DNA from: Candidatus Levyibacteriota bacterium | GTDB lineage: Bacteria; Patescibacteriota; Microgenomatia; Levybacterales; UBA12049 | NCBI GenBank assembly: GCA_016180725.1 | Contig: JACPAR010000005.1 | Span: forward strand, 22,654-86,653 | Reading direction: 5' to 3' | DNA: 64,000 bases | Shown: one piece after another, positions 1 to 43,963 of the stretch | Numbering within the stretch: the first letter of the stretch is position 1 | Layout of the letters: each line of letters begins with the position of its first letter | Notes under the pieces: model-generated | Database searches by the model: none | Told to the model about the DNA's origin: nothing | Seen by the model: the letters and a program-made list of their open reading frames with translations, nothing else | Position numbers and translations under genes: made by a program

Positions 1-753
1 CCCACACCCTTACCAACCCTTATACCTACAAAACCTCCATCAACAAATAATGTGCCACCTGCCGCAGGCTACAGCAGACAAACTGTACAAACTGATACCG
101 GCGCATTTATAGTTGATATTATTTCTGCTGATTTAAACTCTACCCGCGTAATTGTAGACACAGCATCCGATTCTGACTGTTTAAATAACTGCCCAACGCT
201 TTCTCTTTCTACATACGCAGGCAGAAACAGTGCGTTCGCCGGTATAAATGGCTCTTTCTTCTGCCCGACCGAATATCCTGATTGCGCCGGTAAAACAAAT
301 TCTTTTGACACTCTTCTTATGAATAAAAATAAAGTCTATTTCAATTCTGCAAACAATGTTTACAGCACAGTGCCGGCAGCAATTTTTAAAGATAATTGGG
401 CCCGTTTTGTTGAAAAATCTCTTGAATGGGGAAGAGACACAAGCGTAGATAGCGTTATTGCAATGCAACCGCTGCTTGTTTTTAATAACCAAATAGTTTA
501 CAACGGAGGCGACAATGGGAAATTTAACAGTAAAGGCCTTCGCAGCTTTATAGGCGCTACGGGAAACACTGTTTATATTGGCATTATATCCAATGCAACC
601 ATGAATGATTCTGCCCGAGTCCTACATGCGCTAAGCATAACTAATGCGCTTAATCTTGATGAAGGCGGATCAACAGCTTTGTGGTATGGCGGAAATTATA
701 TCTTTGGACCAGGAAGAAATATTCCAAACGCCGTACTTTTTGTCAGAAAATAA
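1..753 (+). CDS. phosphodiester glycosidase family protein (NAGPA-like), 5' end outside window
   Basis: The frame stays open back to position 1 through a PT-rich linker. The C-terminus carries an LDEGGSTAL motif typical of the DUF2233/phosphodiester glycosidase family. ORF track 52..753. Confidence 0.5.
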   Translation, partial: PTPLPTLIPTKPPSTNNVPPAAGYSRQTVQTDTGAFIVDIISADLNSTRVIVDTASDSDCLNNCPTLSLSTYAGRNSAFAGINGSFFCPTEYPDCAGKTNSFDTLLMNKNKVYFNSANNVYSTVPAAIFKDNWARFVEKSLEWGRDTSVDSVIAMQPLLVFNNQIVYNGGDNGKFNSKGLRSFIGATGNTVYIGIISNATMNDSARVLHALSITNALNLDEGGSTALWYGGNYIFGPGRNIPNAVLFVRK

Positions 754-773
754 AAGAAGGAGGTGAATAAATT

Positions 774-851
774 ATGGTAAAAGAATTTGTTCGCAAAATT
801 CTAGAAATATTCGGAGTAAAAAAACCAACCTACGCAAAAGTAAGAGCATAA
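774..851 (+). CDS. small basic ORF (25 aa, MVKEFVRKILEIFGVKKPTYAKVRA) with near-perfect RBS
   Basis: AAGGAGGTG at 757-765 lies 8 nt upstream of the ATG at 774. An inverted-repeat hairpin with a T-run follows the ORF. Confidence 0.3.
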   Translation: MVKEFVRKILEIFGVKKPTYAKVRA

Positions 852-866
852 TTAAAGTAATTGATA

Positions 867-897
867 ATGTAAGAAACCTCTGTCTTACATATTTTTA
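867..897 (+). terminator. hairpin ATGTAAGA-N8-TCTTACAT followed by ATTTTT
   Basis: An 8-bp perfect inverted repeat is followed by a T-tract, downstream of the small ORF and the upstream gene. Confidence 0.35.
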
Positions 898-947
898 GCA
901 TCAATCTTACACTGTATAGCTTAAATCTACTTTACAATTAAGCTCTT

Positions 948-3251
948 ATGTCAATGTTCTTACATATTCTAATAAAAAACAAAAAGGAGCTTATACTTGC
1001 CTCTTTTGCAATGTTCCTTTTTTTGCTTTTTATTCCGGTATTTACTTATGCCTACTTTGCAAAAGACTTAACAACTAAAGATATTATTATGAACAGAAAT
1101 GATACAGGTGTAACTATATTGGATCAAAATGACCGACCATTTTTTACTTTTTATCAAGCAAAAAATAAAGAGTTTGTTCCGCTTAATGATATTCCAAAAT
1201 ACACGCAAGAAACAGTGATCTCAACTGAAGATCGCGATTTTTATTTTCACCCCGGCTTTTCTATTAGAGGAATAATCCGTTCATTTATTGAAAACATAAG
1301 ACAAAGAAGTATTGTGTATGGAGGATCAACAATAACACAACAATTAGTAAAAAATGTTTTACTTAATCCCAGCAAGAGCTTTTTAAGAAAATATCAAGAA
1401 ATTGTTCTTGCCCAAGAAATTGAACGCCGCTATAAAAAAAATGAAATCTTAGAAATGTATTTAAACTCCGTATACTTTGGAGAAGGAGCTTTTGGGATAG
1501 AAGACGCAGCTCAAGTTTATTTTGGAAAAAAAGCAAAAGATTTAACGCTTGCGCAGTCCAGCCTTCTTGCCGGTTTACTTCCGGCTCCCTCATATTTATC
1601 TCCTTTGTCTGGAAATAGAGCAGAAGCAATAAACAGACAAAAAATTGTTTTGGAAAAAATGCTTGAACAAAAATATATAACAAAAGATCAAAAATATAAG
1701 GCAGAAAACGAAAAATTAGTTTTTCGCTCACCAAAAGAAGGAATTAATGAATTTGCTCCCCATTTTGCCCTAATGGTTAAAGACGAACTCGTAAATAAAT
1801 TCGGTGAGGAATATATTTCCAGATCCGGTTTTAGGATAAAAACAAGTCTCAATCTAGACTGGCAGGAATATGCAGAAAAAGTGGTAAGTGATCAAGTAGA
1901 TAAACTTGCGCCTAACAGAGTAACAAATGGAGCAGCTGTTGTAATGGATCCAAAAACAGGAGAAATTAAAGCACTTGTTGGGAGTAAAAACTGGCATGAC
2001 AGTAAATTTGGTAAAGTTAACATAGCAATATCTTTAAGACAACCTGGGTCCGCATTTAAACCTATTGTCTATGCTTCGGCATTCGAAAGACATCTTATTA
2101 CTCCCGCAACCATTCTAAAAGATCAACCTATAACCTATCCGGGAAATTACAGCCCAAAAAACTTTGACCGAAAATTCAGGGGACAAGTTACCGTAAGACG
2201 TGCCCTTGCAAACTCTTTAAACGTTCCGTCTGTTCAGATCATGTCAAAAGTTGACATACCAGACGCTATAGAAATGGCTACAAGATTAGGCATTACAACT
2301 TTAGATGACCCATCCAATTATGGCTTATCACTTGTTTTAGGAGCAGCCGAAGTAAAACCTTTAGAACTAACTAATGTTTACGGCACGTTTGCAAATCAAG
2401 GCATAAAAAATACGCCAACTGCAATACTAGAAATACAAGATAAGCGTGGCCAGATTGTGTATAAATATCATCCTCAGAATAAAGAGGTCCTGGACCCAAA
2501 ATATTCATTTTTAATATCTTCAATTCTTTCTGATAACAAAGCAAGAGCTGAGGAATTTGGAAATCTCCTGGACATATCAAAACCGGCTGCAGTTAAAACA
2601 GGAACTAGCGAAGATTTTAGAGATTCATGGACCGTTGGCTATACTCCATCTTTAGTAATTGGTGCTTGGGTTGGAAATAACGATAATTCCCCTATGGATA
2701 ATATCGCTGGCTCCCTAGGCGCTGCTCCAATTTGGAAAGATTTGATGGAAAGATTTTTATCCGATAAACCAATTGAAAATTTTGTGAAACCTCCTGGTAT
2801 AATTGCTATCCCGTATGTGTGTGTACCTTTTAAAATATCAACACCGTCTTCATCTATGGAGTTTTTTGTAAAAGGGACTGAGCCTAATAAAGACTGTACT
2901 TTGCAAAGCCCAACTATTGTTCGACCAACCACATCAACTAATCCTGTATCGGCTACACCTCTACCCACTGTGTCACCAATTCCATCCTCGCCTACTGTTG
3001 CACCTTCTCTGTCCCCAACCCACCCTATTCCAACTCATACGTTCGTCCCGTCGAATACACATATTCGCAGCAATACTCACAGAAACAAACGCAGCTTTAA
3101 ATTAGATTCTTTTCTTACGGAATTCTTACCATTTTTTAAAGTTACTCTTACAGCTCAAGAACACAATGATTATAAGAATTATATGGAAAAAATATTAACA
3201 TCGACTAATATTTATGAATCAATTAAAAAAAGCTCTAATCTACAGATATAA
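948..3251 (+). CDS. class A penicillin-binding protein (bifunctional GT51 transglycosylase / transpeptidase, PBP1A-like)
   Basis: Has an N-terminal TM segment and the GT51 motifs GGSTITQQLVKN and RKxxEIxLAxExE. Transpeptidase motifs SAFKP, SLN and KTGT are present. A C-terminal PT-rich tail follows. Confidence 0.9.
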   Translation: MSMFLHILIKNKKELILASFAMFLFLLFIPVFTYAYFAKDLTTKDIIMNRNDTGVTILDQNDRPFFTFYQAKNKEFVPLNDIPKYTQETVISTEDRDFYFHPGFSIRGIIRSFIENIRQRSIVYGGSTITQQLVKNVLLNPSKSFLRKYQEIVLAQEIERRYKKNEILEMYLNSVYFGEGAFGIEDAAQVYFGKKAKDLTLAQSSLLAGLLPAPSYLSPLSGNRAEAINRQKIVLEKMLEQKYITKDQKYKAENEKLVFRSPKEGINEFAPHFALMVKDELVNKFGEEYISRSGFRIKTSLNLDWQEYAEKVVSDQVDKLAPNRVTNGAAVVMDPKTGEIKALVGSKNWHDSKFGKVNIAISLRQPGSAFKPIVYASAFERHLITPATILKDQPITYPGNYSPKNFDRKFRGQVTVRRALANSLNVPSVQIMSKVDIPDAIEMATRLGITTLDDPSNYGLSLVLGAAEVKPLELTNVYGTFANQGIKNTPTAILEIQDKRGQIVYKYHPQNKEVLDPKYSFLISSILSDNKARAEEFGNLLDISKPAAVKTGTSEDFRDSWTVGYTPSLVIGAWVGNNDNSPMDNIAGSLGAAPIWKDLMERFLSDKPIENFVKPPGIIAIPYVCVPFKISTPSSSMEFFVKGTEPNKDCTLQSPTIVRPTTSTNPVSATPLPTVSPIPSSPTVAPSLSPTHPIPTHTFVPSNTHIRSNTHRNKRSFKLDSFLTEFLPFFKVTLTAQEHNDYKNYMEKILTSTNIYESIKKSSNLQI

Positions 3252-4833
3252 CCCAATAAATAAAAATCCTAAAAGATCACCCCAAAACAACGGTTACCAT
3301 AAACACAAAGATAAATTAAACCACGACAACCTAGAAAACCTAAAAAAAGAAGTTAAAAAGTTAAAAAAAACCGTTAGATCTCTTGAAGATAGCCAAAGAA
3401 ACTACAAAAAAATTTTTGAAAATAGCCCAACGGGTGTTTACAGAACTTCACCTGATGGAAAAATCCTTATGGCAAATACCGCTATTATTAAAATGTTTGG
3501 ATATCTGCCATCCAAAAAATTATCAGATTATAACTTAGAAGAAAATTGGCATAGTTCTTTTCCACGCAGCAAATTTAAAAAAATCATTGCTGAAAAAGAT
3601 GAAATAAAAGGTCTTGAATATGCATGGGAAAAACAGGACAACACTATAATTTTTTTGCGCGAGAATGCAAGAACGGCAAGAGATAAAAACGGAAATATTC
3701 TATATTATGAAGGGACAATTGAAGATATTACAAAACAAAAACTCGCAGAAGAACAATTAGAAAAAAGCGAAAAACGTTTTCGCGCACTTATCGAAAAAAC
3801 TTCAGACGCAATTACGCTCATAGATGCAAAGGGAAAAAATTTATACGCTAGTCCGTCAACCAGCCGTATTTTAGGATACACTCCAGAAGAGTTTCTTAGG
3901 CAAAAACCTTTTTCTCTAGTCCATCCTGACAATCAAAAATTTATAGACAATTTATTATCGGAATTGATAAAAACTCCAAACAAAAGCATGTCCGGACAAT
4001 ACCGCCTAAAGCATAAAAATGGCTCGTGGCGATGGGTGGAATTTGTTGCAACTAATTTATTGGGGGAACCAAGCGTAAAAGCAATTGTAATCAATTACTA
4101 CGACATTACAGAACGCAAAAATTTAGAAAAAAGGAAAGATGAATTCTTAAGCATTGCAAGTCATGAATTAAAAACCCCCTTAACAAGCATAAAAGCTTTT
4201 GCTCAAGTCTTACAAAAACATTTTGAAAAACTTGGAGATAAAAAATCTGCTCAATATCTTGTTAAAATGGACGCGCAACTTACTAAGCTTACAGAGCTTA
4301 TCCATGACTTACTAGATGTTAGTAGAATTCAAGACGGAAAGTTAATTTTTAAAATAATCAATTTCAACTTAGATGAGTTAATAAACGAAATAATAGAAGA
4401 AATGCAACGTACAACAATTCAACATCATATAATTAAAAAAGGGAAAATAACAAAAAATATTTTTGCAGACAGGGAACGCGTAGGACAGGTAATTATAAAT
4501 TTATTATCAAATGCAATAAAGTATTCTCCTAACTCAGCTACTATTATTGTTAATATCTCTGAGGATAAACAAAACGTTACCATAAGTGTACAGGATTTTG
4601 GAATAGGTATTTCTAAAGAAAATCAAAAAAAAGTTTTTGAAAGATTCTTTAGAGTAGAGACCCCATACGGAGAAATGTTTCCAGGTCTTGGAGTTGGCTT
4701 ATATATTTCAGCTCAAATAATTAAACGGCACAAAGGAAAAATTTGGGTAAAAAGTAAAAAAAGAAAAGGTTCCACCTTTTATTTTAAATTACCAATTTCA
4801 TTAAAAAATGATAATATAGATAATAATGAATAA
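3214..4833 (+). CDS. cytoplasmic sensor histidine kinase (PAS-PAS-HisKA-HATPase_c)
   Basis: Contains the H-box HELKTPLTSI and N/G boxes (NAIKYS, DFGIGI, GLGVGL). PAS-like repeats lie upstream. It overlaps the next gene. Confidence 0.85.
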   Translation: MNQLKKALIYRYNPINKNPKRSPQNNGYHKHKDKLNHDNLENLKKEVKKLKKTVRSLEDSQRNYKKIFENSPTGVYRTSPDGKILMANTAIIKMFGYLPSKKLSDYNLEENWHSSFPRSKFKKIIAEKDEIKGLEYAWEKQDNTIIFLRENARTARDKNGNILYYEGTIEDITKQKLAEEQLEKSEKRFRALIEKTSDAITLIDAKGKNLYASPSTSRILGYTPEEFLRQKPFSLVHPDNQKFIDNLLSELIKTPNKSMSGQYRLKHKNGSWRWVEFVATNLLGEPSVKAIVINYYDITERKNLEKRKDEFLSIASHELKTPLTSIKAFAQVLQKHFEKLGDKKSAQYLVKMDAQLTKLTELIHDLLDVSRIQDGKLIFKIINFNLDELINEIIEEMQRTTIQHHIIKKGKITKNIFADRERVGQVIINLLSNAIKYSPNSATIIVNISEDKQNVTISVQDFGIGISKENQKKVFERFFRVETPYGEMFPGLGVGLYISAQIIKRHKGKIWVKSKKRKGSTFYFKLPISLKNDNIDNNE

Positions 4834-5185
4834 AAAAATACTAGTTGTTGATGATGATCTTGCTATATTAGAGGTTATTAAACTTATATTAGAAGAACAG
4901 GGTTATAAAGTTATCGTTACCAGTGATGGAGGAAAAGTTCAGCAGAAAATAAACGAAGATTTCCCCGATTTAATTCTACTTGATTTTTGGTTATCCGGAC
5001 AAGACGGACGTAAGATTGCAAAATATCTAAAGACCCAAGAAACTACCAGAAATATTCCTATCGTTATGATATCGGCAAATCATGAACCGGAAAAAATAGC
5101 AAGAGACGTCGACGCGAATGATTTTTTAGCAAAACCTTTTGATATTGATGATTTAGTAATGATAGTAAAAAAATATACGGAATAA
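4826..5185 (+). CDS. single-domain response regulator (CheY-like receiver)
   Basis: VVDDD acidic pocket, a conserved D in LILLDFWL, and K in the KPF motif. The 8-nt overlap with the kinase suggests translational coupling. Confidence 0.85.
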   Translation: MNKKILVVDDDLAILEVIKLILEEQGYKVIVTSDGGKVQQKINEDFPDLILLDFWLSGQDGRKIAKYLKTQETTRNIPIVMISANHEPEKIARDVDANDFLAKPFDIDDLVMIVKKYTE

Positions 5186-5216
5186 ATTCAGCCTTTTTTA
5201 ACCTACGCACCCAGAG

Positions 5217-5585
5217 CTACCCAAAAAACTTTACAATATAGGGAATAAAAACAAGAACACCGACAATTACTGATCCTATTACTGTTAATAATACCATTCC
5301 TGCTGCCACATCCTTAGCAATCTTTGCTTGTTTTCTATGATCAATTGAGATTAGATCAACCATTTGCTCAATAGCGCTATTGATCATTTCTGCACAAATT
5401 ACTAAAAGTATTACTACACCAAGAATTCCTTTTTCAAAAGAACTAACACGAAAAATAATACTTGCAATCATAACAATAACCGCAACTGCAGTATGTATAC
5501 GAAGATTTTGATCATGGGTATAAACATATATAACTCCTTCTATGGCAAAACTAAAAGACTGAATTAATCTTTGAATATTTACCAT
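5217..5585 (-). CDS. dgkA: diacylglycerol/undecaprenol kinase (DgkA family)
   Basis: AEMINSAIE motif and three TM segments. The start is an internal ATG at 5583-5585 (MVNIQRL...), giving about 122 aa and sitting 2 nt after the stop of the PAP2 gene. Confidence 0.7.
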   Translation of the reverse strand: MVNIQRLIQSFSFAIEGVIYVYTHDQNLRIHTAVAVIVMIASIIFRVSSFEKGILGVVILLVICAEMINSAIEQMVDLISIDHRKQAKIAKDVAAGMVLLTVIGSVIVGVLVFIPYIVKFFG

Positions 5586-5587
5586 AC

Positions 5588-6181
5588 TTATTTTATTAAT
5601 AACATTTTTACTCCTATTAAAAAGGTTGATAACGTAATAATTATACCAAGTAACCCTCCGCACACAACCTCTGAAATTGTATGTTTTTTTAAATATAATC
5701 TTGCCCAAGAAATAAGTATAATTAACCAAAGCAATAAAAACATTTCTCGTCCGTATAAAATGTTCATAGAGATTACAAATGCAGAAGACACGGCAACATG
5801 AACACTCGCCTTAATATAACGGTTAACTCCCGCAAAAACTATAATACCAAAAATTATGCCAAGTGAAATAATAGACAGAGGAAAAAATACCCCTTTAAGC
5901 ATTAGAGACGCTATTAAATATGTAATTGTTAAAGCAAACAAAATGATATAAAACTTAAGTCTTTGTTCTTTTTTTGTTATATCAAAATCAGAAAAATCTC
6001 CTTCTATTGTTTCAAATAAAATTATCATTACCCCAAAAATTATAAAGACAGATGAAAACAACACCCATTTCATTGCATATAAACTACTATCCGTTTGTTT
6101 GTATATAACAAAAAAAGGCATTATGAGAAAAAACAAAACAGGATGGAAAAGAAATGAAAAAAATCTTGCAAATAATTTCAT
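5588..6181 (-). CDS. PAP2-family membrane phosphatase (putative undecaprenyl-diphosphate / lipid phosphatase)
   Basis: Polytopic membrane protein. KASVHVA and SWARLYLKKHTISEV resemble PAP2 motifs 2 and 3. Directly coupled to dgkA. Confidence 0.5.
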   Translation of the reverse strand: MKLFARFFSFLFHPVLFFLIMPFFVIYKQTDSSLYAMKWVLFSSVFIIFGVMIILFETIEGDFSDFDITKKEQRLKFYIILFALTITYLIASLMLKGVFFPLSIISLGIIFGIIVFAGVNRYIKASVHVAVSSAFVISMNILYGREMFLLLWLIILISWARLYLKKHTISEVVCGGLLGIIITLSTFLIGVKMLLIK

Positions 6182-6185
6182 GCGT

Positions 6186-7415
6186 TTAATTTTTAAGCCT
6201 TTCCAATGTTTTTTCTTTTCCTAATATCTCTAATGTTTGCGGCAATGGTAAACCGCTGGTTTTACCGGTAAATATTTTATAAAAAATAGACATTTTTACT
6301 TTTTCACTTCCCATAAATTTTTTAAATACCGAAAATATTGCTTCGTTACTCCACTTATCTAGAATCGATAACTCTCGATAAAGTCTCTCTGCAATTTCTT
6401 TTTCTTCTTTGGTAAGACTAATATGCTGATCCTCCAAAAATGGAAAAGCAAGATCATAAAAGTCATTTAGGGTTGTTATTCTTGTTTGAGCAAGTGGTAC
6501 TAATTTTTGTATTAACGACTCATCAAGATAATTTTTTTTAATATTTAATATTTGATATTTGATATTTGATATTAATTCATCAGGCTTAGCTTGACGAATA
6601 TATACTCCATTCATCCATTCTAACTTTTTAACATCAAAAATTGGGCTTGCAGTATTTACATCTTTAAGATCAAATAATTTTATCATTTCTTCAATTGATA
6701 TAATTTCTCTATTCCCCCCCGGATTCCATCCCAAAAGTACCATAAAGTTAAGCAACGCTTCCTTAAGATAACCTTCATCTCTATAATCAAGCACCGATTT
6801 TGCACCGTGTCTTTTTGATAATTTTGTCTTATCCGGACCTAAAATAACAGGAAGATGAACAAATGTGGGAAGTTGCCAACCGAACGCGTTGTAAAGTTGA
6901 ATATGTTTTGGAGTTGAAGAAATAAATTCTTCTCCTCTTATCGCGTGGGAAATTTGCATAAGGTGATCATCTATAACATTTGCAAAATTGTAAGTTGGAT
7001 AACCATCAGATTTAATAATAACGAAATCTTCCTGCATACTATTGTCAAAAATAATTTCCTTTTTACCAATTTCATCAACCCAAGCAGTCCTACCTATCTT
7101 TGGCATTCTAAATCTAAATGCGCCCGAATCTTCGTAAGCAAAATTTTTATCGACCAGCTCACGCAGGTGTTTTTTATAAATTTCTAAACGATCTGACTGT
7201 TTATATTCTTCATCCCAATTAAGACCAAGCCATCTTAATATCTCATATATGGCCTTCTCGCTTTCCGGCACTAATCTTACTCTGTCGGTATCTTCTATAC
7301 GAAGAATAAATTTCCCGCTGTTTGCTTTTGCAAAAAGGAAATTATAAAGAGCAGTTCTTGTATTGCCTATGTGCGGAATTCCTGTTGGGCTTGGCGCAAT
7401 TCTTACTCTAACCAT
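6186..7415 (-). CDS. gltX: glutamyl-tRNA synthetase (short form)
   Basis: HIGH motif PHIGNTRTA and KMSKS-like KLSKRHG. The likely start is MVRVRIAPSPTG (ATG 7413-7415) rather than the first in-frame Met. Confidence 0.85.
   Translation of the reverse strand: MVRVRIAPSPTGIPHIGNTRTALYNFLFAKANSGKFILRIEDTDRVRLVPESEKAIYEILRWLGLNWDEEYKQSDRLEIYKKHLRELVDKNFAYEDSGAFRFRMPKIGRTAWVDEIGKKEIIFDNSMQEDFVIIKSDGYPTYNFANVIDDHLMQISHAIRGEEFISSTPKHIQLYNAFGWQLPTFVHLPVILGPDKTKLSKRHGAKSVLDYRDEGYLKEALLNFMVLLGWNPGGNREIISIEEMIKLFDLKDVNTASPIFDVKKLEWMNGVYIRQAKPDELISNIKYQILNIKKNYLDESLIQKLVPLAQTRITTLNDFYDLAFPFLEDQHISLTKEEKEIAERLYRELSILDKWSNEAIFSVFKKFMGSEKVKMSIFYKIFTGKTSGLPLPQTLEILGKEKTLERLKN
6541..6575. repeat. period-7 tandem repeat (ATATTTG)x5 inside gltX
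   Basis: Direct reading of the sequence. It translates in-frame as [13 protein letters not shown]. Confidence 0.75.
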
Positions 7416-7456
7416 ACTCCTTGCATTGTACCCCAAACTTTTTCTATACTCAAGAC

Positions 7457-8503
7457 ATGCCAACTCTTCATAAAGTAAAAGAGGGTATAAAAACGTCTTT
7501 AAAATTTGGCGTATATTCTTTAATAATTCTTTCTATTTTTCTGGTATTGATTAATATTGGCAAAAATCTTAAAGAACGTTTTTTCCCCACGCCTCCCCCA
7601 CTGCCAACTGTCTCTTTTGGAAAAATTCCTCCAAATAATTTTCCTAAAAACGCAACAGATAAAAATTTAACTTATACATTAAACACAGTTTCCGGAACAC
7701 TACCAACTTTTTCTGATAAAGCAAAGGTTTATAAGATTTTCCAACCGGAACCCACTCTTCTATCGCTTAAAAGGGCTCAGGAAAGTGTAGGAAAAATTAG
7801 TTTTACTTCACAACCTATAGCTCTTTCAGAAAGTATCTACCAATGGACAAATAATGATAATCTCTCTAGAAAAATTATCTTCAACATTACTTCTTTAAAT
7901 TTTAATTTATCTACAAATTTTCTTTTAACTAATCAAAATCTTTTAACTAATAAATATTTGGACGGAGCTGGTGCAAAAGATAAAGCGCAATCTTTTTTTT
8001 CCACCATGGATTCTTTTCCTGATGATATTGACTTAGCACAAACAAGAACATCTTTATTTGCGGTTGAAAACGGCGAACTTGTACCCGCCACGAGTTTATC
8101 CAATGCGACAATAGTCCGTGTTGATTTTTTTCAAAAAGATTTAGACAACATTCCCATTTTTTATCCCAACCCCTCTTTCTCTCTAATTCATGCTCTTCTA
8201 ACCGGATCTGAACCGCAAGGACAAATTATAGAGGCGAGTTTTTTTCATCATAACATAAGCAATAAAACAGCAACTTATCCTATAAAAACAGCAAATGAAG
8301 CTTTTTCGCAATTAAAAAAAGGCAATGCCTACATTGCTTCCTATAATGGCCCATCTAATGAAGCGGTAATTAAAAATGTTTTCTTGGGTTACTACTTAAA
8401 CGATAAGGAACAAGATTATTTAACACCGATTATCATTTTTCGAGGAGATTATAATTTTTTTGCTTATGTTGAGGCAATAAAAGATGATTGGATAGCTAAA
8501 TAA
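7457..8503 (+). CDS. hypothetical membrane-anchored/secreted protein
   Basis: N-terminal TM or signal segment and no recognisable domain. The ATG at 7457 is preferred over the TTG at 7421. Confidence 0.45.
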   Translation: MPTLHKVKEGIKTSLKFGVYSLIILSIFLVLINIGKNLKERFFPTPPPLPTVSFGKIPPNNFPKNATDKNLTYTLNTVSGTLPTFSDKAKVYKIFQPEPTLLSLKRAQESVGKISFTSQPIALSESIYQWTNNDNLSRKIIFNITSLNFNLSTNFLLTNQNLLTNKYLDGAGAKDKAQSFFSTMDSFPDDIDLAQTRTSLFAVENGELVPATSLSNATIVRVDFFQKDLDNIPIFYPNPSFSLIHALLTGSEPQGQIIEASFFHHNISNKTATYPIKTANEAFSQLKKGNAYIASYNGPSNEAVIKNVFLGYYLNDKEQDYLTPIIIFRGDYNFFAYVEAIKDDWIAK

Positions 8504-8506
8504 AAC

Positions 8507-9565
8507 TTATTTTGCTTGATTAGAAAATAAAGAACTTGCATTTACATAAGTTATTTTACCGCTAATAAGAGATAATAATTTTTCTGTATCATCAAACCTA
8601 TCCTGACTTTTCATAACAACGATAATAAACAAGTGGCCATTTTCCATTTTTGCCGTTGTCAAAACTCCACCGGCTTCATCTGTAAATCCTGTTTTTATGC
8701 CTCTTACTCCGTCTATTCCTAATAGTTTATTTAAATTGTGAATTTCATATAGTTTTGTACCTTCTATATTAGAAATTACCGCTCGTTGAGTTGCGACAAC
8801 CTTAGCTAATACCAGGTTTTTCATTACAATTGAAGAAAGTCTTGCTAAATCAAGTACTGTTGTGTAGTCTCCTTCATCTTCCAGTCCCGCAGAATCGGAA
8901 AAATGAGTATGAATTAAATTAAAAGCCTGTGCTTTATCATTCATCTTTTCAATAAATGCAGATTCTCCTCCTGGGTAATTTTGCGCTATAGCAATTGCAG
9001 CATCATTGCCGGAAGGCAAAAGCATTGCGTATAGTAAATCTTTAAATGAAAGCTTTTCTCCTTTTTTAAATCCTACAACAGCACCTTTAACGTTACCAGT
9101 CTTAATTGTTAAAATGTCATTCATGTTATAAAAATCTAGCGCTGTTAAAGCTGTCATAATTTTTGTTGTCGAAGCCATAGAAAAACGAAGGTATGCATTT
9201 TTTGAAAATAAAACAACTTTCGACTGATCGTCCATAATAACTGCTGCTTTAGCAGAAATATCCGGTTCTGATTTGCTTATTGAAAAATTGTTTGAACTCT
9301 TTACTCCAAGAACATCCCCCGATTTTACAGGATATGGAGCAAATACCAAATTAGTAAAAGAGGGGTTAGATAACTTATTATTTTCTATTTGCTTTTTTAA
9401 GGTTGTGTTTACTAAAATGAGATTAGCCAACAAGAAAAACAACGCTAATGGGGGTAGATAAAGATAATACTTTTTAAAATCTCTGGCATGAAAATCATTT
9501 AAAAATTTTTTGCACAGTAAGAAATTTTTCTTAAGCTTTTTTATTAAGAGTAGATAATCTTTCAT
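8507..9565 (-). CDS. dacA: D-alanyl-D-alanine carboxypeptidase (peptidase S11, PBP5/6-like)
   Basis: Motifs SxxK (ASTTK), SGN (PSGND) and KTG (KTGFT). Has an N-terminal TM segment. The ATG at 9565 has a GGAG RBS. Confidence 0.85.
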   Translation of the reverse strand: MKDYLLLIKKLKKNFLLCKKFLNDFHARDFKKYYLYLPPLALFFLLANLILVNTTLKKQIENNKLSNPSFTNLVFAPYPVKSGDVLGVKSSNNFSISKSEPDISAKAAVIMDDQSKVVLFSKNAYLRFSMASTTKIMTALTALDFYNMNDILTIKTGNVKGAVVGFKKGEKLSFKDLLYAMLLPSGNDAAIAIAQNYPGGESAFIEKMNDKAQAFNLIHTHFSDSAGLEDEGDYTTVLDLARLSSIVMKNLVLAKVVATQRAVISNIEGTKLYEIHNLNKLLGIDGVRGIKTGFTDEAGGVLTTAKMENGHLFIIVVMKSQDRFDDTEKLLSLISGKITYVNASSLFSNQAK

Positions 9566-10803
9566 CGACTCGCTCCATATCTCTTGGAAACAACGAAGCT
9601 TCACGAATATTAGGCAGATCCAAAATATGCATTGTTATACGCTCCAGTCCGAAAGAAAAACCTCCTTCAGGCGGCATACCATATTTAAACGCCATTAAAT
9701 ACATGGCAAAATCTTTAGGGTTCATGCCCCTGTCTCTTATCGCCTCGACTAACTGATTATAATCATTTATTCTCTGACTGCCACTTAAAATCTCAACGCC
9801 CCTGAATAATAAATCGTAACTTAAAGAATATTCCGGATTTTTTGGATCAGGCATTGTATAAAACGCGCGTTTTTTTGTGGGAAAATGGGTAATTGTTACA
9901 AAATCTGTATTATGCTTTTCTTTTGCCCATTTACAAATATCAATTTCATCCTGAGGCATTAAGTCTTTTTCTTTTCGGTTATCTCTACCAAACTGCTTAT
10001 AAATAATTTCTTGCGCTTCGCGTAAAGCTAACCTTGGGATTTTTCCAGAAGCTACTTTTTCTAATTTAAATTCAGAAAATATATCAGCGCATTCTTTTTC
10101 TACATGTTTAAGCATATCAACAGCTACTTTTTCTAGCAAATCTAACAACTCCCCAAAACCAACAAAGCCAAATTCACAATCCAGTTGCGTTGTCTCGGAT
10201 TTGTTTGTAAAGCTGCGGGCTTTGGGTTAAAAAAGCTTTGTAGTCATAATAATCAACTCTAAATACTTCGCTTCCTCCCTCTGTAGAAGATGCTGCAATG
10301 GTAGGTACAAAAATTTCTGTGCAATCTAAGCTCTTTGCAGCTTTTCTAAATCCTTCTAAAACTTCTGCCTGAACTTTAAAAATTGCTTTTATTTTAGGAT
10401 GGCGAAGAGTTAAAGATCTGTAATCAAGAAGCGTTGGCAATTGTAACTCCAAATCTTTTCCTCCCATATCAAAAGGCAGCGCTTCTGCTTTTGAAAGTAC
10501 ATTTACACTGGTTGCCTCAATTTCGATAGTGCCAGTTACGTTTGAAGGATTAATGTATCGTTCTTCCCTTTTTTTAACTTTTCCGCTAACTTCTACCACG
10601 TCTTGTTGTCCTAAAGCAGCAATGGTACTTGCTAATGCCTCTGTTGTTCCGACTACTTGAATAAACTCCAGACGGTCTCTTAAATCAAAAAAAGCTATCT
10701 TACCGTGGCTGCGCACAGTCTGTATCCATCCATAAAGTTTTACCTCTTGACTAACCTTTTGCAAACACTCAACAGTAAGGGTTCTTTTTGAAAATTCGTC
10801 CAT
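9531..10803 (-). pseudogene. aspS: aspartyl-tRNA synthetase, archaeal/eukaryotic type, split by a frameshift plus an internal deletion that removes class II motif 2
   Basis: The N-part (10174..10803) has the OB anticodon domain through FLTQSPQLYKQ and then stops after IRDNATGL. The C-part (9531..10148, TTG start) carries SGSQRINDY, FKYGMPPEGGFSFGLERI and LFPRD. The two frames differ by 1 nt, and the roughly 21 aa spanning FRAE...RHL are absent. Confidence 0.55.
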
Positions 10804-10847
10804 ATATCTGGTAAAATATCTTTATACATAATACATTGATTTTACTG

Positions 10848-10876
10848 TCTTGACAAGCACTTCTTTGGGTGTTATA
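10848..10876 (+). promoter_or_regulatory. consensus sigma70-like promoter TTGACA-17-TATAGT
   Basis: TTGACA at 10848-10853, an exact 17-nt spacer, and TATAGT at 10871-10876. It is oriented toward ORF 11063. Confidence 0.5.
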
Positions 10877-10923
10877 GTCAAGCTGAAATGAATTTAGCGC
10901 TTATTATTAAAATGCACGTTATT

Positions 10924-11055
10924 TTCCTCCCCTTTACCTAAGGAGGGAGATTTTGTGCTGTTTTAAGAATACCAAATCTCCCCCAATAAAGGGGGATTTT
11001 AAGTGCGAAATAAACGTTCTTAATCTCCCAACAATTTTTGAAGGGAGATTTTTAA
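10924..11055 (+). promoter_or_regulatory. three tandem stem-loops (CCTCC..GGAGG / TCCCCC..GGGGGA / AATCTCCC..GGGAGATT), each followed by ATTTT, in the 5' leader
   Basis: Inverted repeats at 10926-10949, 10975-10999 and 11022-11050. The third is a perfect 8-bp stem. All share CTCCC...GGGAG(A)TTTT. Confidence 0.45.
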
Positions 11056-11062
11056 TGAAAAT

Positions 11063-11443
11063 ATGAGAGAGTATCCAATTCCACCAGGATTATCAAGAGA
11101 ACACAGAAGAGCACTTAGAACTTGTATCAAGACACAACGAATTTTTGATGAGCTGGTTGACGCTGCTCAAAATAGCGCACCAGGAACACTTATAAAGTAT
11201 TCTAATGGACACGAATCTATTGTTACTGTCGATAAAGATGGTGTTCCTGGTTTACTAGATGATTATATAGCAGGCTTAGTACATTCAGGTGTAAACCGAA
11301 GAAATGCCAGAAGAGAAGCAAATTCTTTAGAAAAAAGATTTTTTAGCGGGACACCTGATGAACAACAGGTAGTTTTTGTAACATTAAGAGGCGCTGTAGA
11401 TGGACTAAATGGGATACCTGATCCAATTAGACGAAAGACGTAA
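11063..11443 (+). CDS. hypothetical 126-aa Arg-rich protein, GC-elevated, no recognised domain
   Basis: ORF-track ORF whose GC is about 40% against about 33% for the window. It is preceded by the strong promoter and the hairpin leader. Confidence 0.4.
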   Translation: MREYPIPPGLSREHRRALRTCIKTQRIFDELVDAAQNSAPGTLIKYSNGHESIVTVDKDGVPGLLDDYIAGLVHSGVNRRNARREANSLEKRFFSGTPDEQQVVFVTLRGAVDGLNGIPDPIRRKT

Positions 11444-11498
11444 TCCCTACATGTATAAGAAATAAGCAATACACCTGGGAAGTGGATTAGCTTGACAC

Positions 11499-13325
11499 CT
11501 AGGGTTTTATGTCTCTTATCTTTAGCTGCAATTTTTGACTTCCATTCCATTTATTTAAGTCAATTGTATAAGCAATATCAACGCTATCGCCAACATGAAA
11601 CTCGCTTGCCCTGTCACCCATCCCAAATGCAATCGCCTCAATTCTGAATTCTGAGTTCTTAATTTTGAATTTTAATTTTAGGTGTTTGTTTTCTCTCCCA
11701 ACAAATCTCATGTCTTCTATAACTACATTTCTGCTTACAAATGTTGGCTCCGGATTTGCCATACCAAATGGCGCCAGTTTTTGAACTGTATTATAAAGCT
11801 CTGTATCAACATAAAATAAAGGGATTTCCATATCTATTCGCAACAATCGGGTAAGCATATTCTCATCTATCAATTTATGGGCTTTTTTCTCAAGCATCTC
11901 TTTAAGAAGTATTAATTTTACGGTTTCTACTGTAAAACCTGCAGCCATTGGATGACCGCCTGCATCAACTAGCAACTCCGATGCTCCTCTTATAAATTCG
12001 ATCATATTAAAACCAGAAACCGATCTTGCCGATGCTTTACTGTATTTTTCGCCTATCGATAAAACTATTGCCGGTCTGTAAAACTCTTCCACTAACTTTC
12101 CTGCAACCAGCCCAATTACTCCCTGCTGATAACTTTCGTGCGCCACAAAAAGTAATTTTTTAATTTTTTCTTTCTGATTTTTTATTCCGTCTATTGCGTG
12201 AGAAACAGTTTCTCCTGTTACCCTTTGCCTTTCTTTATTAGTAGAACCAAGTTTGGAAGCAAGATTGCGGGCCCTGTCGGCGTTTTTTGTACATAAAAGC
12301 CGTAAGCTATCCATTGCATATTCAAGTCTCCCCATCGCATTAAGCCTGGGCGCAATAATATGACCGATTTCGTATGTTCTTATTTCCTTTAGGTTTATAA
12401 CCGCTTCTTTAAAAAGTTCCAAAAGCCCAACCCTTTTTGTTTTTTGCAACTTTTCCAAACCAAATTTTACAAGCGTTCTGTTGGCTCCGATTAAAGGAAC
12501 CAAATCGGCAACAGTAGCAAGCGCCACTAATTCTAAATGTGTGTCTCCCTTTTCCATTTTTAACTTTTCACTTTGAACTTTGAACTCTTGCGATAACAAG
12601 TATGCTACTCCCGTGCCGCATAACTTTGTCGTATGAACAATTGCATATGCGTTTGGCATTTTTTTTGACGGAACGTGATGGTCGGTAATTATTACATCAA
12701 TATTATTTTTGTTAGCAAAATCAACTGCCTCATTTGCCACAATTCCATTGTCTACAGTAATTATTAGTGCAATTTTTGCTATTTGATTTTTGATATTTGA
12801 TATCCCTGTCAATGAAAGACCGTATCCTTCATCAATTCTGTGAGGAATATAAGGTGTAACTTTTGCGCCCATCGCATGAAGCGTTTCCCACAAAATTGCA
12901 GTTCCGCAAATTCCGTCAACGTCGTAGTCACCAAAAACAACAATTTGTTCTTTATCTTCAATTGCTTTTTTAATTCTCTTAATAGCTTTTTGCAATTGCT
13001 TTTTATTAATACCAACGCTATCGGTAGTTACGTTTTCGAGTTTTGGATTAAGAAACTTATCTATTTCTTTTTTTGTTTTTATCCCCCGATTTTGAAACAA
13101 TAGTCTTACTAGTTCTTCAACTTTGAACTTTGAACTCTTGTCTCCTCGAGTCCCTCGGGACTGAGTCCTCGGGACGAACGTCTGAGCGACCGATTCGGCC
13201 TGAGGGCCCTTCGGTCTTGAGCTCAGGGTCGAAAGACTCACGGCCTCGAAGGCCTCGGAGTCGAAGACCTGAGCGGAGCCGAAGGGTTGAACTTTGAACT
13301 TACTTTGTATCTCCCATTTCTTCAT
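11499..13325 (-). CDS. recJ: single-stranded-DNA-specific exonuclease RecJ
   Basis: DHH motifs (VVFGDYDVDG, ITDHH) and the DHHA1 motif GGGHPMAAG. The first ~70 codons of the N-terminus read through a GC-rich inserted element. Confidence 0.85.
   Translation of the reverse strand: MKKWEIQSKFKVQPFGSAQVFDSEAFEAVSLSTLSSRPKGPQAESVAQTFVPRTQSRGTRGDKSSKFKVEELVRLLFQNRGIKTKKEIDKFLNPKLENVTTDSVGINKKQLQKAIKRIKKAIEDKEQIVVFGDYDVDGICGTAILWETLHAMGAKVTPYIPHRIDEGYGLSLTGISNIKNQIAKIALIITVDNGIVANEAVDFANKNNIDVIITDHHVPSKKMPNAYAIVHTTKLCGTGVAYLLSQEFKVQSEKLKMEKGDTHLELVALATVADLVPLIGANRTLVKFGLEKLQKTKRVGLLELFKEAVINLKEIRTYEIGHIIAPRLNAMGRLEYAMDSLRLLCTKNADRARNLASKLGSTNKERQRVTGETVSHAIDGIKNQKEKIKKLLFVAHESYQQGVIGLVAGKLVEEFYRPAIVLSIGEKYSKASARSVSGFNMIEFIRGASELLVDAGGHPMAAGFTVETVKLILLKEMLEKKAHKLIDENMLTRLLRIDMEIPLFYVDTELYNTVQKLAPFGMANPEPTFVSRNVVIEDMRFVGRENKHLKLKFKIKNSEFRIEAIAFGMGDRASEFHVGDSVDIAYTIDLNKWNGSQKLQLKIRDIKP
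11641..11682. repeat. period-7 tandem repeats (ATTCTGA / ATTTTGA / ATTTTAA) inside the recJ 3' region
   Basis: Direct reading of the sequence. It encodes KLKFKIKNSEFRI in frame. Confidence 0.7.
13119..13304. repeat. GC-rich (~65% GC) structured insertion flanked by AACTTTGAACTTTGAACT direct repeats, at the recJ 5' end / recJ-cca divergent region
   Basis: GC composition switches sharply at 13141-13289. Internal hairpins include GTCCCTCGGGAC, GGCCTCGAAGGCC and GACCGA..TCGGTC. The 21-nt flank ACTTTGAACTTTGAACTCTTG also occurs at 12561. The 3' part is about 80% identical to 13755-13795. Confidence 0.6.
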
Positions 13326-13336
13326 ACAAAATTTAT

Positions 13337-14782
13337 TTGCTATACTATAGCAGATCCGATAAGGGTGAACAAGCTGTGCAAAAACTTATTCCGAAAATCA
13401 TTTTAAAAATTTATAAAAAGCTTCAGGAAAACAACTTCGAAGTTTACCTGGTAGGTGGATCTGTTAGAAATCTCATAATGAAATTGCCTGTAAAAGATTG
13501 GGATTTAACAACTAACGCAACCCCAGAAGAAATGCTTAAACTTTTCCCAGATGGGTTTTATGACAATACTTTTGGGACAGTAGGTATTCCAATTGAAAAG
13601 GATGGGAAAAACCAAGTTGTTGAAGTAACAACCTTTCGCACCGAACATGGGTATACCGATCGAAGACGTCCGGATAAGGTTTTATGGGGAAAGACTATAG
13701 AAGAAGATCTCGCCCGCCGTGATTTTACAATCAACGCTATAGCCCTACACCTCGAAGGTGGCCGACTCGCCCTGAGCGAAGCCGAAGGGATGGACTACTT
13801 TGAGGTGAATAAAACTGAACTCATCGATCCATTTAATGGCAAAAAAGATATCGAAAATAAGCTCATCCGTGCAGTTGGCGATCCGGATCAACGATTCAAA
13901 GAAGATGCGCTAAGGCTTTTACGAGCAATACGAATCGCCACAGAGCTTTCTTTTACTATCGAAGAAAAAACCTGGAAGGAACTGGTTACCGACGCACCAC
14001 TTATCACTCAAATATCGGAAGAAAGAATACAAATAGAACTTATGCGGATTTTAGCAAGCAATTACCCATACGATGGAATTATGTTGCTTAGAAATTCCAC
14101 TCTTTTAGAACAAATTATTCCTGAGCTTTTAAAAGGCGTTGGCGTTTCCCAGGTAAGACCGGGCAGACACCACACAACAGATGTTTTTACCCATAACGTT
14201 TTATCGCTTAAATATACTCCGTCCACCGATCCTATTGTTAGATTTGCAGCGCTTTTACATGATGTTGGAAAACCTTACGTTGCCTCAACAGACGAACATG
14301 GTCTTGTAATCTTTCATAATCACGAAATTGTCGGCGCAAAGATGGCAAAAGAAATCTGCGAAAGACTAAAGTTCTCCAAAAAAGAACGGGAAAAAATTGT
14401 TAACCTTATCCGCTGGCATATGTTTACGGTTGATGAAAAAATCACCGACGCAGCGGTTCGAAGATTTATCCGCCGGGTTGGCGTTGAAAATGTAAAAGAT
14501 ATGATGGATCTTCGTATTGGAGATAGATTAGGCGGAGGAACACAAACTGCAGAAAGCTGGAGACTAAAGTTATTTAAAAAAAGAGTGGAAGATCAATTAA
14601 AACCCGCACCTTTTTCCATTAACGATTTAGTCATTGACGGGAATGATGTAATGAAAGAATTGAACATTAAGCCTGGTCCTAAAGTTGGCGAAATACTGCA
14701 AAAACTTTTTGAAGAAGTTGACGAAGACCTTTCAAGGAATAATCGTGAATACCTACTTAAACGCATACACGAATTAGACTAA
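13337..14782 (+). CDS. cca: CCA-adding tRNA nucleotidyltransferase with HD domain
   Basis: Pol-beta NTase head (LVGGSVRNL...DWDL), RDFTINA, and an HD motif HDVGKP. The start is a TTG at 13337 or a GTG at 13376 (VQKLIPK). Confidence 0.85.
   Translation: MLYYSRSDKGEQAVQKLIPKIILKIYKKLQENNFEVYLVGGSVRNLIMKLPVKDWDLTTNATPEEMLKLFPDGFYDNTFGTVGIPIEKDGKNQVVEVTTFRTEHGYTDRRRPDKVLWGKTIEEDLARRDFTINAIALHLEGGRLALSEAEGMDYFEVNKTELIDPFNGKKDIENKLIRAVGDPDQRFKEDALRLLRAIRIATELSFTIEEKTWKELVTDAPLITQISEERIQIELMRILASNYPYDGIMLLRNSTLLEQIIPELLKGVGVSQVRPGRHHTTDVFTHNVLSLKYTPSTDPIVRFAALLHDVGKPYVASTDEHGLVIFHNHEIVGAKMAKEICERLKFSKKEREKIVNLIRWHMFTVDEKITDAAVRRFIRRVGVENVKDMMDLRIGDRLGGGTQTAESWRLKLFKKRVEDQLKPAPFSINDLVIDGNDVMKELNIKPGPKVGEILQKLFEEVDEDLSRNNREYLLKRIHELD
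13755..13795. repeat. GC-rich element copy inserted in-frame in cca (encodes LEGGRLALSEAEG)
   Basis: CCTCGAAGG...GAGCGAAGCCGAAGGG aligns with the 3' part of the 13141-13289 element. Confidence 0.55.
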
Positions 14783-43461: not shown

Positions 43462-43963
43462 AATTAATTATGATCCTTCTTTTACTTTCCGAAATGTAAT
43501 CAAAATAAATATCCACTCTTTTTTTAGGCAACAATTTTCCAAGCTTTTCTGCCCATTCAATTGCAACAATTGAATTTTGATCATTAAGTATTTCTCTTAC
43601 TCCTAATCCCTCAAGGTCTTTTTCGCTTTCAATCCTGTATAAATCTATATGATAGAACATTTTTGATTTTTTATTTGCTCGCCTCGCTGCGAAGCGGGTA
43701 TTTTTGATATTTAATTTTTGATTTTTTATATTAATTTTATATGTTCTAACAATAATAAACGTTGGCGAAATAATTCTTCTTTCTATTCCTAATCCCTTTG
43801 CTAAACCCTGAACAAAGGTTGTTTTTCCAGCCCCTAGCTCTCCATGCAAGGCTATAACTTCTCCACCTTTAAGTTTTTTAGCAAACTCTTCTGCTACTTT
43901 TTGCGTTTCCTCAAAATTATGAGTAATAAATGTCTTTTCCTCTGTCATATTATTGATTGTCAT
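43454..43963 (-). CDS. tsaE: tRNA t6A biosynthesis ATPase TsaE
   Basis: P-loop HGELGAGKTTF and FYHIDLYR. Carries a ~25-aa insertion encoded by a repeat plus a GC-rich core. Confidence 0.75.
   Translation of the reverse strand: MTINNMTEEKTFITHNFEETQKVAEEFAKKLKGGEVIALHGELGAGKTTFVQGLAKGLGIERRIISPTFIIVRTYKINIKNQKLNIKNTRFAARRANKKSKMFYHIDLYRIESEKDLEGLGVREILNDQNSIVAIEWAEKLGKLLPKKRVDIYFDYISESKRRIIINYE
43661..43737. repeat. composite insertion in tsaE: GC-rich core (GCTCGCCTCGCTGCGAAGCGGG) followed by period-7 AT repeats
   Basis: Local GC spike followed by TTTTTGA/TATTTAA heptamers. It encodes KINIKNQKLNIKNTRFAARRANKK. Confidence 0.6.

Follow-up and report, generated by a model that had tools for sequence, protein, structure and literature searches.

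How does a GC-rich, hairpin-forming block of DNA come to lie in frame inside a gene for an essential protein, in an A/T-rich genome from a lineage in which little mobile DNA is expected? The question is raised by recJ in a stretch of 64,000 nucleotides from a Candidatus Levyibacteriota bacterium (assembly GCA_016180725.1, contig JACPAR010000005.1, positions 22,654 to 86,653; hereafter the window, with positions counted from its first base). This bacterium belongs to the Candidate Phyla Radiation (CPR, or Patescibacteria), whose members are known for very small, streamlined genomes in which repeats and mobile DNA are usually said to be scarce. A preliminary description of the window had noticed a GC-rich palindromic stretch near the 5' end of recJ, bounded by direct repeats and with related copies in cca and tsaE, and had likened it to the Rickettsia palindromic elements (RPEs). 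On the evidence assembled below we consider it likely that this block is a composite of very small GC-rich hairpin repeats, inserted without duplication into a heptamer array of recJ.

The GC-rich block of recJ and its insertion site

The block comprises the 150 nt at 13137-13286, within the minus-strand recJ open reading frame (ORF; 11499-13325, 608 aa). Its G+C content of 64%, against 34.5% for the whole 64-kb window, agrees well with the contrast first reported, and among the GC-rich stretches of at least 60 nt it is the sole one in the window to stay near 60% G+C across more than 100 nt. As had been claimed, the recJ frame passes through it without a stop codon. The hairpins noted earlier are also recovered, since the block folds into three adjacent hairpins both as coding-strand RNA (-72 kcal/mol, z = -2.3) and as DNA (-40 kcal/mol, z = -3.05). 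The encoded RecJ matches, at 100% identity, an annotated protein of a Candidatus Levybacteria metagenome-assembled genome (MAG) and contains the DHH, DHHA1 and RecJ_OB domains.

A filled and an empty version of the insertion site can be compared directly. Locus L201, the contig of the RecJ homologue P0101, has an uninterrupted heptamer array at the same recJ nucleotide: the junction falls 39 nt after the ATG in the window and in L201 alike, with the flanks ...AAAGTTCAA and AGTTCAAAGTTCAAAGTTGAA on its two sides, and the window is longer by exactly 150 nt. Once these 150 nt are taken out of the window, an unbroken (AAGTTCA)n array remains that equals that of L201 in length and phase, and hence the insertion left no target-site duplication. 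Thus, the block reads as a clean insertion, at codon 13/14 of recJ, into an (AAGTTCA)n array that was already there. The direct repeats that the preliminary description had placed at the borders of the block exist as exact heptamer runs, but they were not made by the insertion; their interpretation as a target-site duplication was rejected, as they are the two halves of the older array, split exactly by the block.

The same array site is occupied by smaller cores elsewhere. In L202, which comes from another species, a 24-nt core, TCCTTCGGCAAGACTCAGGAAAAG, follows TTCAA at the very same junction, and the first 19 nt of this core resemble the first 19 nt of the window block. A different 19-nt core, ATCCCGATTAAATCGGGAT, lies at the same recJ N-terminal array site in L003 (~9980-10010) and L004 (~6005-6035); in L004 it is a perfect palindrome, and in L003 the core together with 2 nt makes up exactly three heptamer periods. 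TTCAA precedes the core in the four cleanest cases, namely the window, two sites of L202 and L003, with three of these sites being orthologous and TTCAA being the array sequence itself. The junction in the window is also seen in L258, an independent Logan assembly of the same strain from a different sequencing run, which is 100% and 99.8% identical to window positions 1-13170. This contig contains the junction 13136/13137 and stops after the first 34 nt of the block; its match across the junction therefore disfavours a chimeric join, and its end within the block shows that assemblies break there.

At the protein level the 50 extra residues of the window are absent from all 119 RecJ homologues, which, along with the empty site in L201, bears out the proposal of a lineage-specific insertion; the block does not align to conserved RecJ sequence. 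In length the 120 Levybacteria-type RecJ proteins vary between 542 and 649 aa; they display five insertion hot spots, and all four heptamer arrays of the window recJ fall at hot spots of the family. At the N-terminal site the core-bearing sequences are scattered, and the nearest relatives (80-84% identity) usually have no core. An AlphaFold2 model of the window RecJ, built with 32 homologues, gives a confident RecJ fold (mean predicted local distance difference test score, pLDDT, 84.9). Residues 13-65 are the only segment of this model with a pLDDT below 50 and show no secondary structure, lying between a strand at 3-9 and a helix at 69-79. The block is hence predicted to lengthen an otherwise intact RecJ by approximately 50 disordered residues, placed between its first strand and its first helix. 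When the insert peptide (52 aa) was used as query, a word-index protein search yielded no candidates; a phmmer search against 1.84 billion proteins recovered a single weak match, in a 2918-aa protein (E = 6e-07, 35% identity over ~37 residues), and the composite peptide was not recovered elsewhere.

Modules shared between genes, genomes and viral contigs

The recurrence of part of the block in cca at about 80% identity, as given in the preliminary description, is confirmed: the longer module CCTCGAAGG...CCGAAGGG aligns between recJ and cca at 33/42 positions (79%), and the 19-mer CCTGAGCGGAGCCGAAGGG of the block recurs in cca at 13771-13789 with 18/19 identities (1 mismatch). These two matches, in recJ and cca, compare with none in 100 shuffles, even when up to 3 mismatches are allowed. 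Likewise, the pattern CCTGAG-N3-9-CGAAGG has 3 matches in the window against 0.01 expected, of which two form an inverted pair in the block, at 13268-13285 (+) and 13208-13227 (-), and the third lies in cca. The loop of the CCA enzyme that receives this module, between RRDFTINAIA and IDPFxG, numbers 4 residues in the shortest CPR homologues; in Levybacteria it is filled by heptad peptides or GC cores, of which LEGGRLALSEAEG in the window is one, and the Pfam PolyA_pol head domain spans 143 residues of the window CCA enzyme for 126 profile positions.

In coding sense the block opens with CCCTTCGGCTCCGCTCAGG (the 19-mer unit, inverted), followed by GTCTTCGACTCCGAGG, the central hairpin GGCCTTCGAGGCC and GAGTCTTTCGAC, and continues with CCTGAGCTCAAGACCGAAGGG (the partner unit), a 39-nt hairpin, a tandem pair of 14-nt mini-hairpins and GAGGAGACAAG. 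The partner unit and the first unit close an 80-nt palindrome, and the termini of the whole block, CTTGTCTCC... and ...CCGAAGGG, form no inverted repeat with each other. One strand of the block has many hairpins with GAA or GAAA loops, and the opposite strand has C(UUCG)G. Mini-hairpins of the sequence d(GCGAAGC) are reportedly extraordinarily stable (work of Hirao and colleagues in the 1990s). One GCGRAGC is present in each of the window cores in recJ, cca and tsaE, all three of which contain GCGRAGC or CCGAAGG triloop motifs, and across the window GCGRAGC is not enriched (10 occurrences vs 5.8 expected). Rfam searches of the window and 20 motif-bearing loci gave nothing at the gathering score, and those of 13050-13850 gave chance-level matches only at E up to 10. 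A tRNA or tmRNA origin of the block was also considered and rejected on the evidence.

As a whole the 150-nt block is single-copy in all the sequence that was searched. In blastn searches against the window and 257 loci it gave matches of 10-25 nt only, and its repeated parts appear to be modules of 10-27 nt only, so the earlier expectation of further copies holds for the modules and not for the block as a unit. At 3034-3050 there is a partial match (17/17 nt, with one mismatch), probably by chance (E = 0.11). Among 204 loci GTCTTCGACTCCGARG occurs solely in the recJ C-terminal insert of L202, and there, at the C-terminal hot spot, L202 carries a composite insert with GTCTTCGACTCCGARG, ACTCGAGGAG and GTCTTCGACTCCGAGG, framed by TTCAA on one side and AATTCAAAATTG on the other.

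Beyond the Levybacteria the 19-mer is widespread, with exact matches of CCTGAGCGRAGCCGAAGGG in at least 120 metagenome contigs of 31-73% G+C, and in 53 viral contigs (IMG/VR, L205-L257), where we estimate that ~1-3 would occur by chance. In an information profile of 123 matches of the 19-mer, conservation extends over eight additional 5' bases (GAGCCTGC) and drops to the background level on either side; hence the conserved unit is about 27 nt long (GAGCCTGC+CCTGAGCGAAGCCGAAGGG). On low-GC contigs the 19-mer lies in frame within HsdM-like, GlyA-like and other long ORFs. On high-GC contigs the unit recurs in larger nested hairpins of the form TGTCATCCTGAGCGGAGC...GGAGTCGAAGAGCCTGC+unit, and the corresponding arrangement in the window is CGGAGTCGAAGA+unit. 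Judged from its sequence context, the 19-mer appears in high-GC bacteria and viral contigs as a sharply bounded ~27-nt unit, and viruses could be its carriers between hosts. In individual viral contigs the 19-mer was seen in the loop of a long perfect stem (L233) or between heptamer arrays (GAACAAC/AAACAAC in L257 and GAAATCA in L245).

The third site, in tsaE, was first described as a shorter version of the same element. A 22-nt GC core does lie there between A/T-rich heptamer runs, but it is not a copy of the recJ block: it has no blastn match to the block and belongs to a different core family, with a 20/22 match only in recJ of L201, where it is also found between heptamer runs. The TsaE loop that contains it has 45 residues in the window vs 22-24 in the shortest homologues, and Pfam aligns 149 residues of the window TsaE to 126 profile positions. 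Identical core peptides (PHFAKASRGK, PFDFAQGK, HPFGKLRT, (S)xRQAQDK and LPAGR) are shared by RecJ and TsaE from different Levybacteria, always between heptad repeats, and cores of 19-24 nt are present in L003, L004, L202 and L203. Just upstream of tsaE we observed, in addition, an intergenic perfect 13-bp inverted repeat, TGTCATTGCGAGG...CCTCGCAATGACA (43959-44007), with an RNA fold of -25.2 kcal/mol (z = -4.0). Its terminus is also found in L136 (twice), L142 and L216, all of them contigs bearing the 19-mer, and it is probably a sister family of the hairpin repeats.

The arrays that receive the cores are themselves a marked feature of these genomes. The window has 14 exact period-7 runs of at least 15 nt, compared with 1.4 in shuffles and with 6-7 runs at each of the periods 6, 8 and 9; the period-7 runs lie in recJ (four sites), tsaE, gltX and the genes for a SufC-like ATPase, a cysteine desulfurase and transketolase. 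Such runs are common in Levybacteria-, Curtissbacteria- and Chisholmbacteria-type loci and absent from Firmicutes recJ loci. The TsaE loop (SPTF to HIDLYR) of 120 homologues (P0121-P0240) falls into modulo-7 length classes of 51, 30 and 19 sequences, with the series 24/31/38/45/52, 22/29/36/43 and 27/41/48, and the arrays therefore grow in 21-nt (7-residue) steps. Their fixed orientation relative to the genes is explained by the fact that only the AAGTTCA orientation is stop-free in all three frames, the complement containing TGA. An over-representation of heptamers among bacterial simple repeats has been noted earlier and ascribed to polymerase slippage (PMC4692102).

Cores embedded in heptamer arrays were found in the window (recJ and tsaE), L202, L203 and L018. 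A strict scan for a GC core between two exact arrays returned 4 cases only, because the arrays are usually imperfect, and a generic scan for GC islands returned mostly ordinary coding sequence. In Levybacteria, surface loops of the housekeeping proteins RecJ, the CCA enzyme and TsaE hold heptamer arrays, and it is there, in otherwise unrelated genes, that the GC cores are found. Further in-frame heptamer arrays, without GC cores, are present at 6537-6573, 27154-27183, 30122-30159 and 52715-52748, in the genes for gltX, a cysteine desulfurase, a SufC-like ABC ATPase and transketolase (QISNSKFQIANM); these look like candidate "empty" landing sites or scars.

Origin of the block

If the block is a composite of small inserted repeats, the cores would be a form of non-autonomous selfish DNA that enters DNA which is readily single-stranded or slipped, chiefly tandem arrays and, with weaker backing, some hairpin loops. 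Two routes might be envisaged: 1) a single-strand HUH or IS200-type transposase acting in trans might cut after TTCAA and insert the core without duplication; 2) template switching or gene conversion might use array units common to different loci as homology arms. Either enzymatic route, taken singly, can be offered only tentatively. Nested insertion and inverted duplication might have built up the 150-nt composite, starting from a 24-nt core like that of L202. In gene-dense genomes only those copies that are in frame and in tolerant loops would survive, and in-frame read-through of the block would yield peptides such as VFDSEAFEAVSLSTLSSRPK. The block itself is most likely neutral passenger DNA, which would persist because it is in frame and in a tolerant linker.

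A wider generalization is possible, although we would not call it probable: the cores may represent a cross-phylum class of ultra-small (19-27 nt) mobile DNA units, shaped as GAA-triloop or UUCG mini-hairpins, that integrate without duplication into slipped arrays and hairpin loops, nest into larger palindromes and, in the CPR, are translated in RecJ, the CCA enzyme and TsaE, with arrays and cores together acting as a general generator of new protein loops. In a bolder variant the GC cores would derive from repeats of high-GC neighbours, as nuclease-resistant fragments that these competence-dependent symbionts take up and retain as filler DNA.

Several observations weigh against insertion of mobile repeats: 1) 3/6 frames of the block, that of recJ included, are free of stops, and thus the open recJ frame is by itself weak evidence. 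2) The empty and filled sites come from different species (~66% RecJ identity) and not from strains, and the "empty" array of L201 could also be a product of precise loss, so that the change may have run in either direction. 3) The 19-mer is weakly linked to hairpin loops, as flanking stems of at least 8 bp accompany 4.4% of its matches vs 1.2% of controls. 4) Each core family is low-copy, with 5 CCTGAG...CGAAGG matches in ~340 kb of Levybacteria DNA, and copy numbers are hence far below those of classical mobile repeats. 5) Outside Levybacteria, heptamer arrays flank the 19-mer in 10/126 matches (~8%), and the array density ratio near it is a modest 3.2, compared with 1.3-2.6 for other periods; clear array-flanked cases there are L191, L094, L257 and L245. 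6) No transposase or other mobilising gene was identified, in a scan that took in few of the window ORFs and did not systematically seek RAYT/TnpA.

The best of the competing explanations, though in our view unlikely, is a local origin without mobility, in which slippage, snap-back synthesis and quasi-palindrome correction within the arrays generated the block and the similarities between cores reflect convergence on the hyper-stable mini-hairpin motifs GCGAAGC, CCGAAGG and C(UUCG)G. The arrays clearly do lengthen by slippage, 21 nt at a time, tandem and inverted duplications are present within the block, each window core has one GCGRAGC, and the core families are many and individually low-copy, all of which would fit such an origin. 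However, exact or near-exact matches of 16-22 nt join different genes and genomes, and the occurrence of the 19-mer together with eight flanking bases in at least 120 contigs (31-73% G+C) and in viral contigs far exceeds what convergence on motifs of 5-7 nt would produce. Moreover, slippage of an A/T-rich array cannot make a sequence with 64% G+C.

We give somewhat less weight still to a selected function, either as an mRNA structure 40 nt into recJ (a translation brake, a stabiliser or the source of a small RNA) or as a flexible linker or interaction peptide. The strong structure predicted near the start codon, at -72 kcal/mol, the maintenance of the reading frame and the recurrence of inserts at the same loops across the family would be in keeping with it. 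Nevertheless, the block is found in one lineage only, its relatives carrying unrelated cores, bare arrays or nothing at the site; it matches no Rfam family; its peptide is predicted to be disordered and has no homologues; and the fold z-scores (-2.3, -3.05) are moderate. Removal of the block from the mature RecJ, through intron-like processing, translational bypass of the byp type or intein-like splicing, appears highly improbable. Excision of exactly 150 nt would indeed restore the ancestral sequence, and the GC-rich hairpin inserts do resemble the GC clusters and byp elements of yeast mitochondria, but in all intact database homologues the inserts contain no stop codon and have lengths divisible by 3, as translated sequence should, neither Rfam intron or ribozyme matches nor intein motifs were found, and cores of only 19-24 nt occupy the same contexts. 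An assembly artefact or chimera in the MAG is just as improbable: although the full RecJ protein is found on one database contig only, that contig lacks 80 nt of aspS, with a frameshift, when compared with the near-identical L258, and L258 breaks within the block, that independent run yields the array-block junction and the first 34 nt exactly, and the block keeps the reading frame, divides the array in phase and has modules in common with inserts in other Levybacteria that come from many independent assemblies. Insertion of composite hairpin repeats remains the explanation we favour.

Neighbouring features and comparison with known elements

Table 1. Repeats, cores and heptamer arrays in the window
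Feature	Position	Strand	Remarks
150-nt GC-rich composite insertion	13137..13286	-	recJ residues 14-63 (PFGSAQVFDSEAFEAVSLSTLSSRPKGPQAESVAQTFVPRTQSRGTRGDK); from empty-site comparison, 119 homologues without block and pLDDT
80-nt imperfect palindrome CCCTTCGG...CCGAAGGG	13207..13286		19-mer unit and inverted partner around central GGCCTCGAAGGCC hairpin; from folds
19-mer unit CCTGAGCGGAGCCGAAGGG	13268..13286	+	GCGGAGC and CCGAAGG mini-hairpin motifs; member of cross-phylum repeat family
Two further hairpin modules	13148..13205		Tandem pair GAGTCCCTCGGGACT / GAGTCCTCGGGAC and hairpin CCTCGGGACGAACGTCTGAGCGACCGATTCGGCCTGAGGG; from Tandem Repeats Finder (period 14) and DNA fold
Module ACTCGAGGAG (+ strand CTCCTCGAGT)	13140-13149		Just 5' of the 13148..13205 interval
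Module GTCTTCGACTCCGAGG			Within the 80-nt palindrome, further 3' than 13148..13205
Half array AACTTTG x2.6 (+ strand; AAGTTCA in coding sense)	13119..13136	-	3' of insertion (coding sense); encodes SSKFKV; from Tandem Repeats Finder
Half array TTGAACT x2.1	13287..13301	-	5' of insertion (coding sense); encodes KFKVQ; in phase with 13119-13136
recJ heptamer array (LKLKFKIKNSEFRI)	11640..11680	-	RecJ-family C-terminal insertion hot spot
recJ heptamer array (EFKVQSEKLKMEK)	12549..12586	-	Hot spot near residue 254; local pLDDT dips to 59
recJ heptamer array (ISNIKNQIAKI)	12772..12803	-	Hot spot near residue 180
GC-rich module in cca (CCTCGAAGGTGGCCGACTCGCCCTGAGCGAAGCCGAAGGG)	13750..13789	+	Encodes LEGGRLALSEAEG; hypervariable loop between RRDFTINAIA and IDPFNG
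22-nt GC core GCTCGCCTCGCTGCGAAGCGGG in tsaE (gene on -)	43677..43698	+	Encodes TRFAARRA; core family other than that of the recJ block
A/T-rich heptamer runs (ATTTTTG / ATATTTA types) flanking tsaE core	43650..43738	-	Encode KINIKNQKLNIKN ... NKKSK

Some observations concern the genes around recJ. The aspS gene (9531-10803) is split into two ORFs with the junction at 10200/10201, and L258, in which AspRS is intact (450 aa), has 80 extra nt at this point that encode the motif-2 region MMVPVFERVFTIAHAYRAEPSVTTRHLSE; this essential gene has therefore, in the window, either lost 80 nt with a shift of frame or been misassembled. Between aspS and recJ a 126-aa ORF (11063-11443) has no Pfam match, and its interval accounts for 5/7 of the differences between the window and L258. 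The interval is variable, being occupied by a 229-aa gene in L201 and a 74-aa gene in L203. On the other side of recJ, the first part of the listed cca ORF contains a conserved sequence, TG(C/T)TATACTAT, that looks like an extended -10 promoter box (window 13337-13380; also upstream of cca in L001-L011 and L202). Because of this promoter-like box the listed TTG start at 13337 is probably wrong, and the GTG at ~13376, after AAGGGTGA, is the more likely start. The control regions of recJ and cca overlap within ~50 nt.

The presence of in-frame GC-rich hairpin inserts and 7-residue tandem peptides at recurrent loops of CPR essential genes has a bearing on gene calling, protein-length variation and assembly breaks in CPR MAGs. 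It also brings together heptanucleotide tandem arrays and very small dispersed repeats, neither of which has been studied much, and the distribution of one unit over genomes of 31-73% G+C and viral contigs calls for a mobilising mechanism. In the literature we found nothing relevant on in-frame palindromic insertions in the CPR, on transposable elements of the miniature inverted-repeat class (MITEs) in Patescibacteria, on the peptide LKQVQHD or on the 15-mer GAGCGAAGCCGAAGG, and the pattern of in-frame GC cores is apparently new for CPR bacteria.

Among known elements the RPEs were the first to be invoked. As summarised in PMC10969869, these number 44 copies of ~150 bp in R. conorii (Ogata et al. 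2000), form hairpins, lie in frame in housekeeping genes, add a peptide compatible with the protein fold and have no transposase of their own. The recJ block shares with them its character as a palindromic element of ~100-150 bp in frame in a protein-coding gene; however, RPEs have a multi-copy full-length consensus, whereas the block is single-copy with only its 10-27-nt modules repeated. Further differences are the host, which belongs to the CPR and not to Rickettsia, the form of G+C-rich islands in A/T-rich DNA and the placement inside heptanucleotide arrays. Hence, the "RPE-like" label of the preliminary description is apt as an analogy, in that the element is in frame, palindromic and tolerated in proteins, and does not denote membership. 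With this proviso the idea drawn from RPEs, that selfish DNA can give rise to new protein segments, might be extended beyond Rickettsia, with the filled and empty alleles and the TTCAA junction as concrete sites at which to pursue it. Classical MITEs are small, non-autonomous, structured and dispersed and can fuse in frame with host ORFs (PMC10969869). The block differs from them in having neither terminal inverted repeats nor a target-site duplication.

Other likenesses are mechanistic. Repetitive extragenic palindromes (REPs) and bacterial interspersed mosaic elements (BIMEs), with their REP-associated tyrosine transposases (RAYTs), and elements derived from IS200/IS605 are short GC-rich imperfect palindromes that are mobilised in trans as single-stranded DNA and insert 3' of a short fixed sequence without target-site duplication. 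REPs are extragenic and carry a 5' GTAG; the units described here lack GTAG and are intragenic. The absence of duplication and the TTCAA preceding the cores recall the IS200/IS605 type, yet TTCAA is the array sequence, three of the four sites are orthologous and the smallest cores (24 nt) are almost free of hairpins. In yeast mitochondria, GC clusters and byp elements form GC-rich palindromic islands in very A/T-rich genomes, also within coding sequence, and byp elements are bypassed by the ribosome. These belong to other hosts, their likeness to the present cores is one of form, and translation through the block would be the simpler reading here.

The closest precedent, by analogy, seems to lie in the small dispersed repeats (SDRs) of Nostoc punctiforme. 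The families SDR4-6, described by Elhai and colleagues in 2008, are said to be units of ~20-27 nt that act like mobile DNA, vary in presence between orthologous sites, often lie within tandem heptameric repeats and nest in one another, and reportedly they are found mainly outside coding sequence; to our knowledge no enzyme has been linked to them. The Levybacteria cores resemble this type in three respects: 1) the unit is ~27 nt long with sharp edges; 2) cores are embedded within tandem heptanucleotide repeats; 3) they are present or absent at orthologous positions, with the site empty in L201, filled in the window and cores scattered among relatives. Small dispersed repeats are, in the account given in PMC5861425, reported only in Nostocaceae. 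The units found here are likened to them by description and not by sequence, range from the CPR to high-GC phyla and viruses, and in Levybacteria lie inside essential proteins. Thus, while the Nostoc repeats might offer the nearest model, the novel aspects of the present system would be its CPR host, a routine translation in essential proteins and a unit common to several phyla and their viruses.

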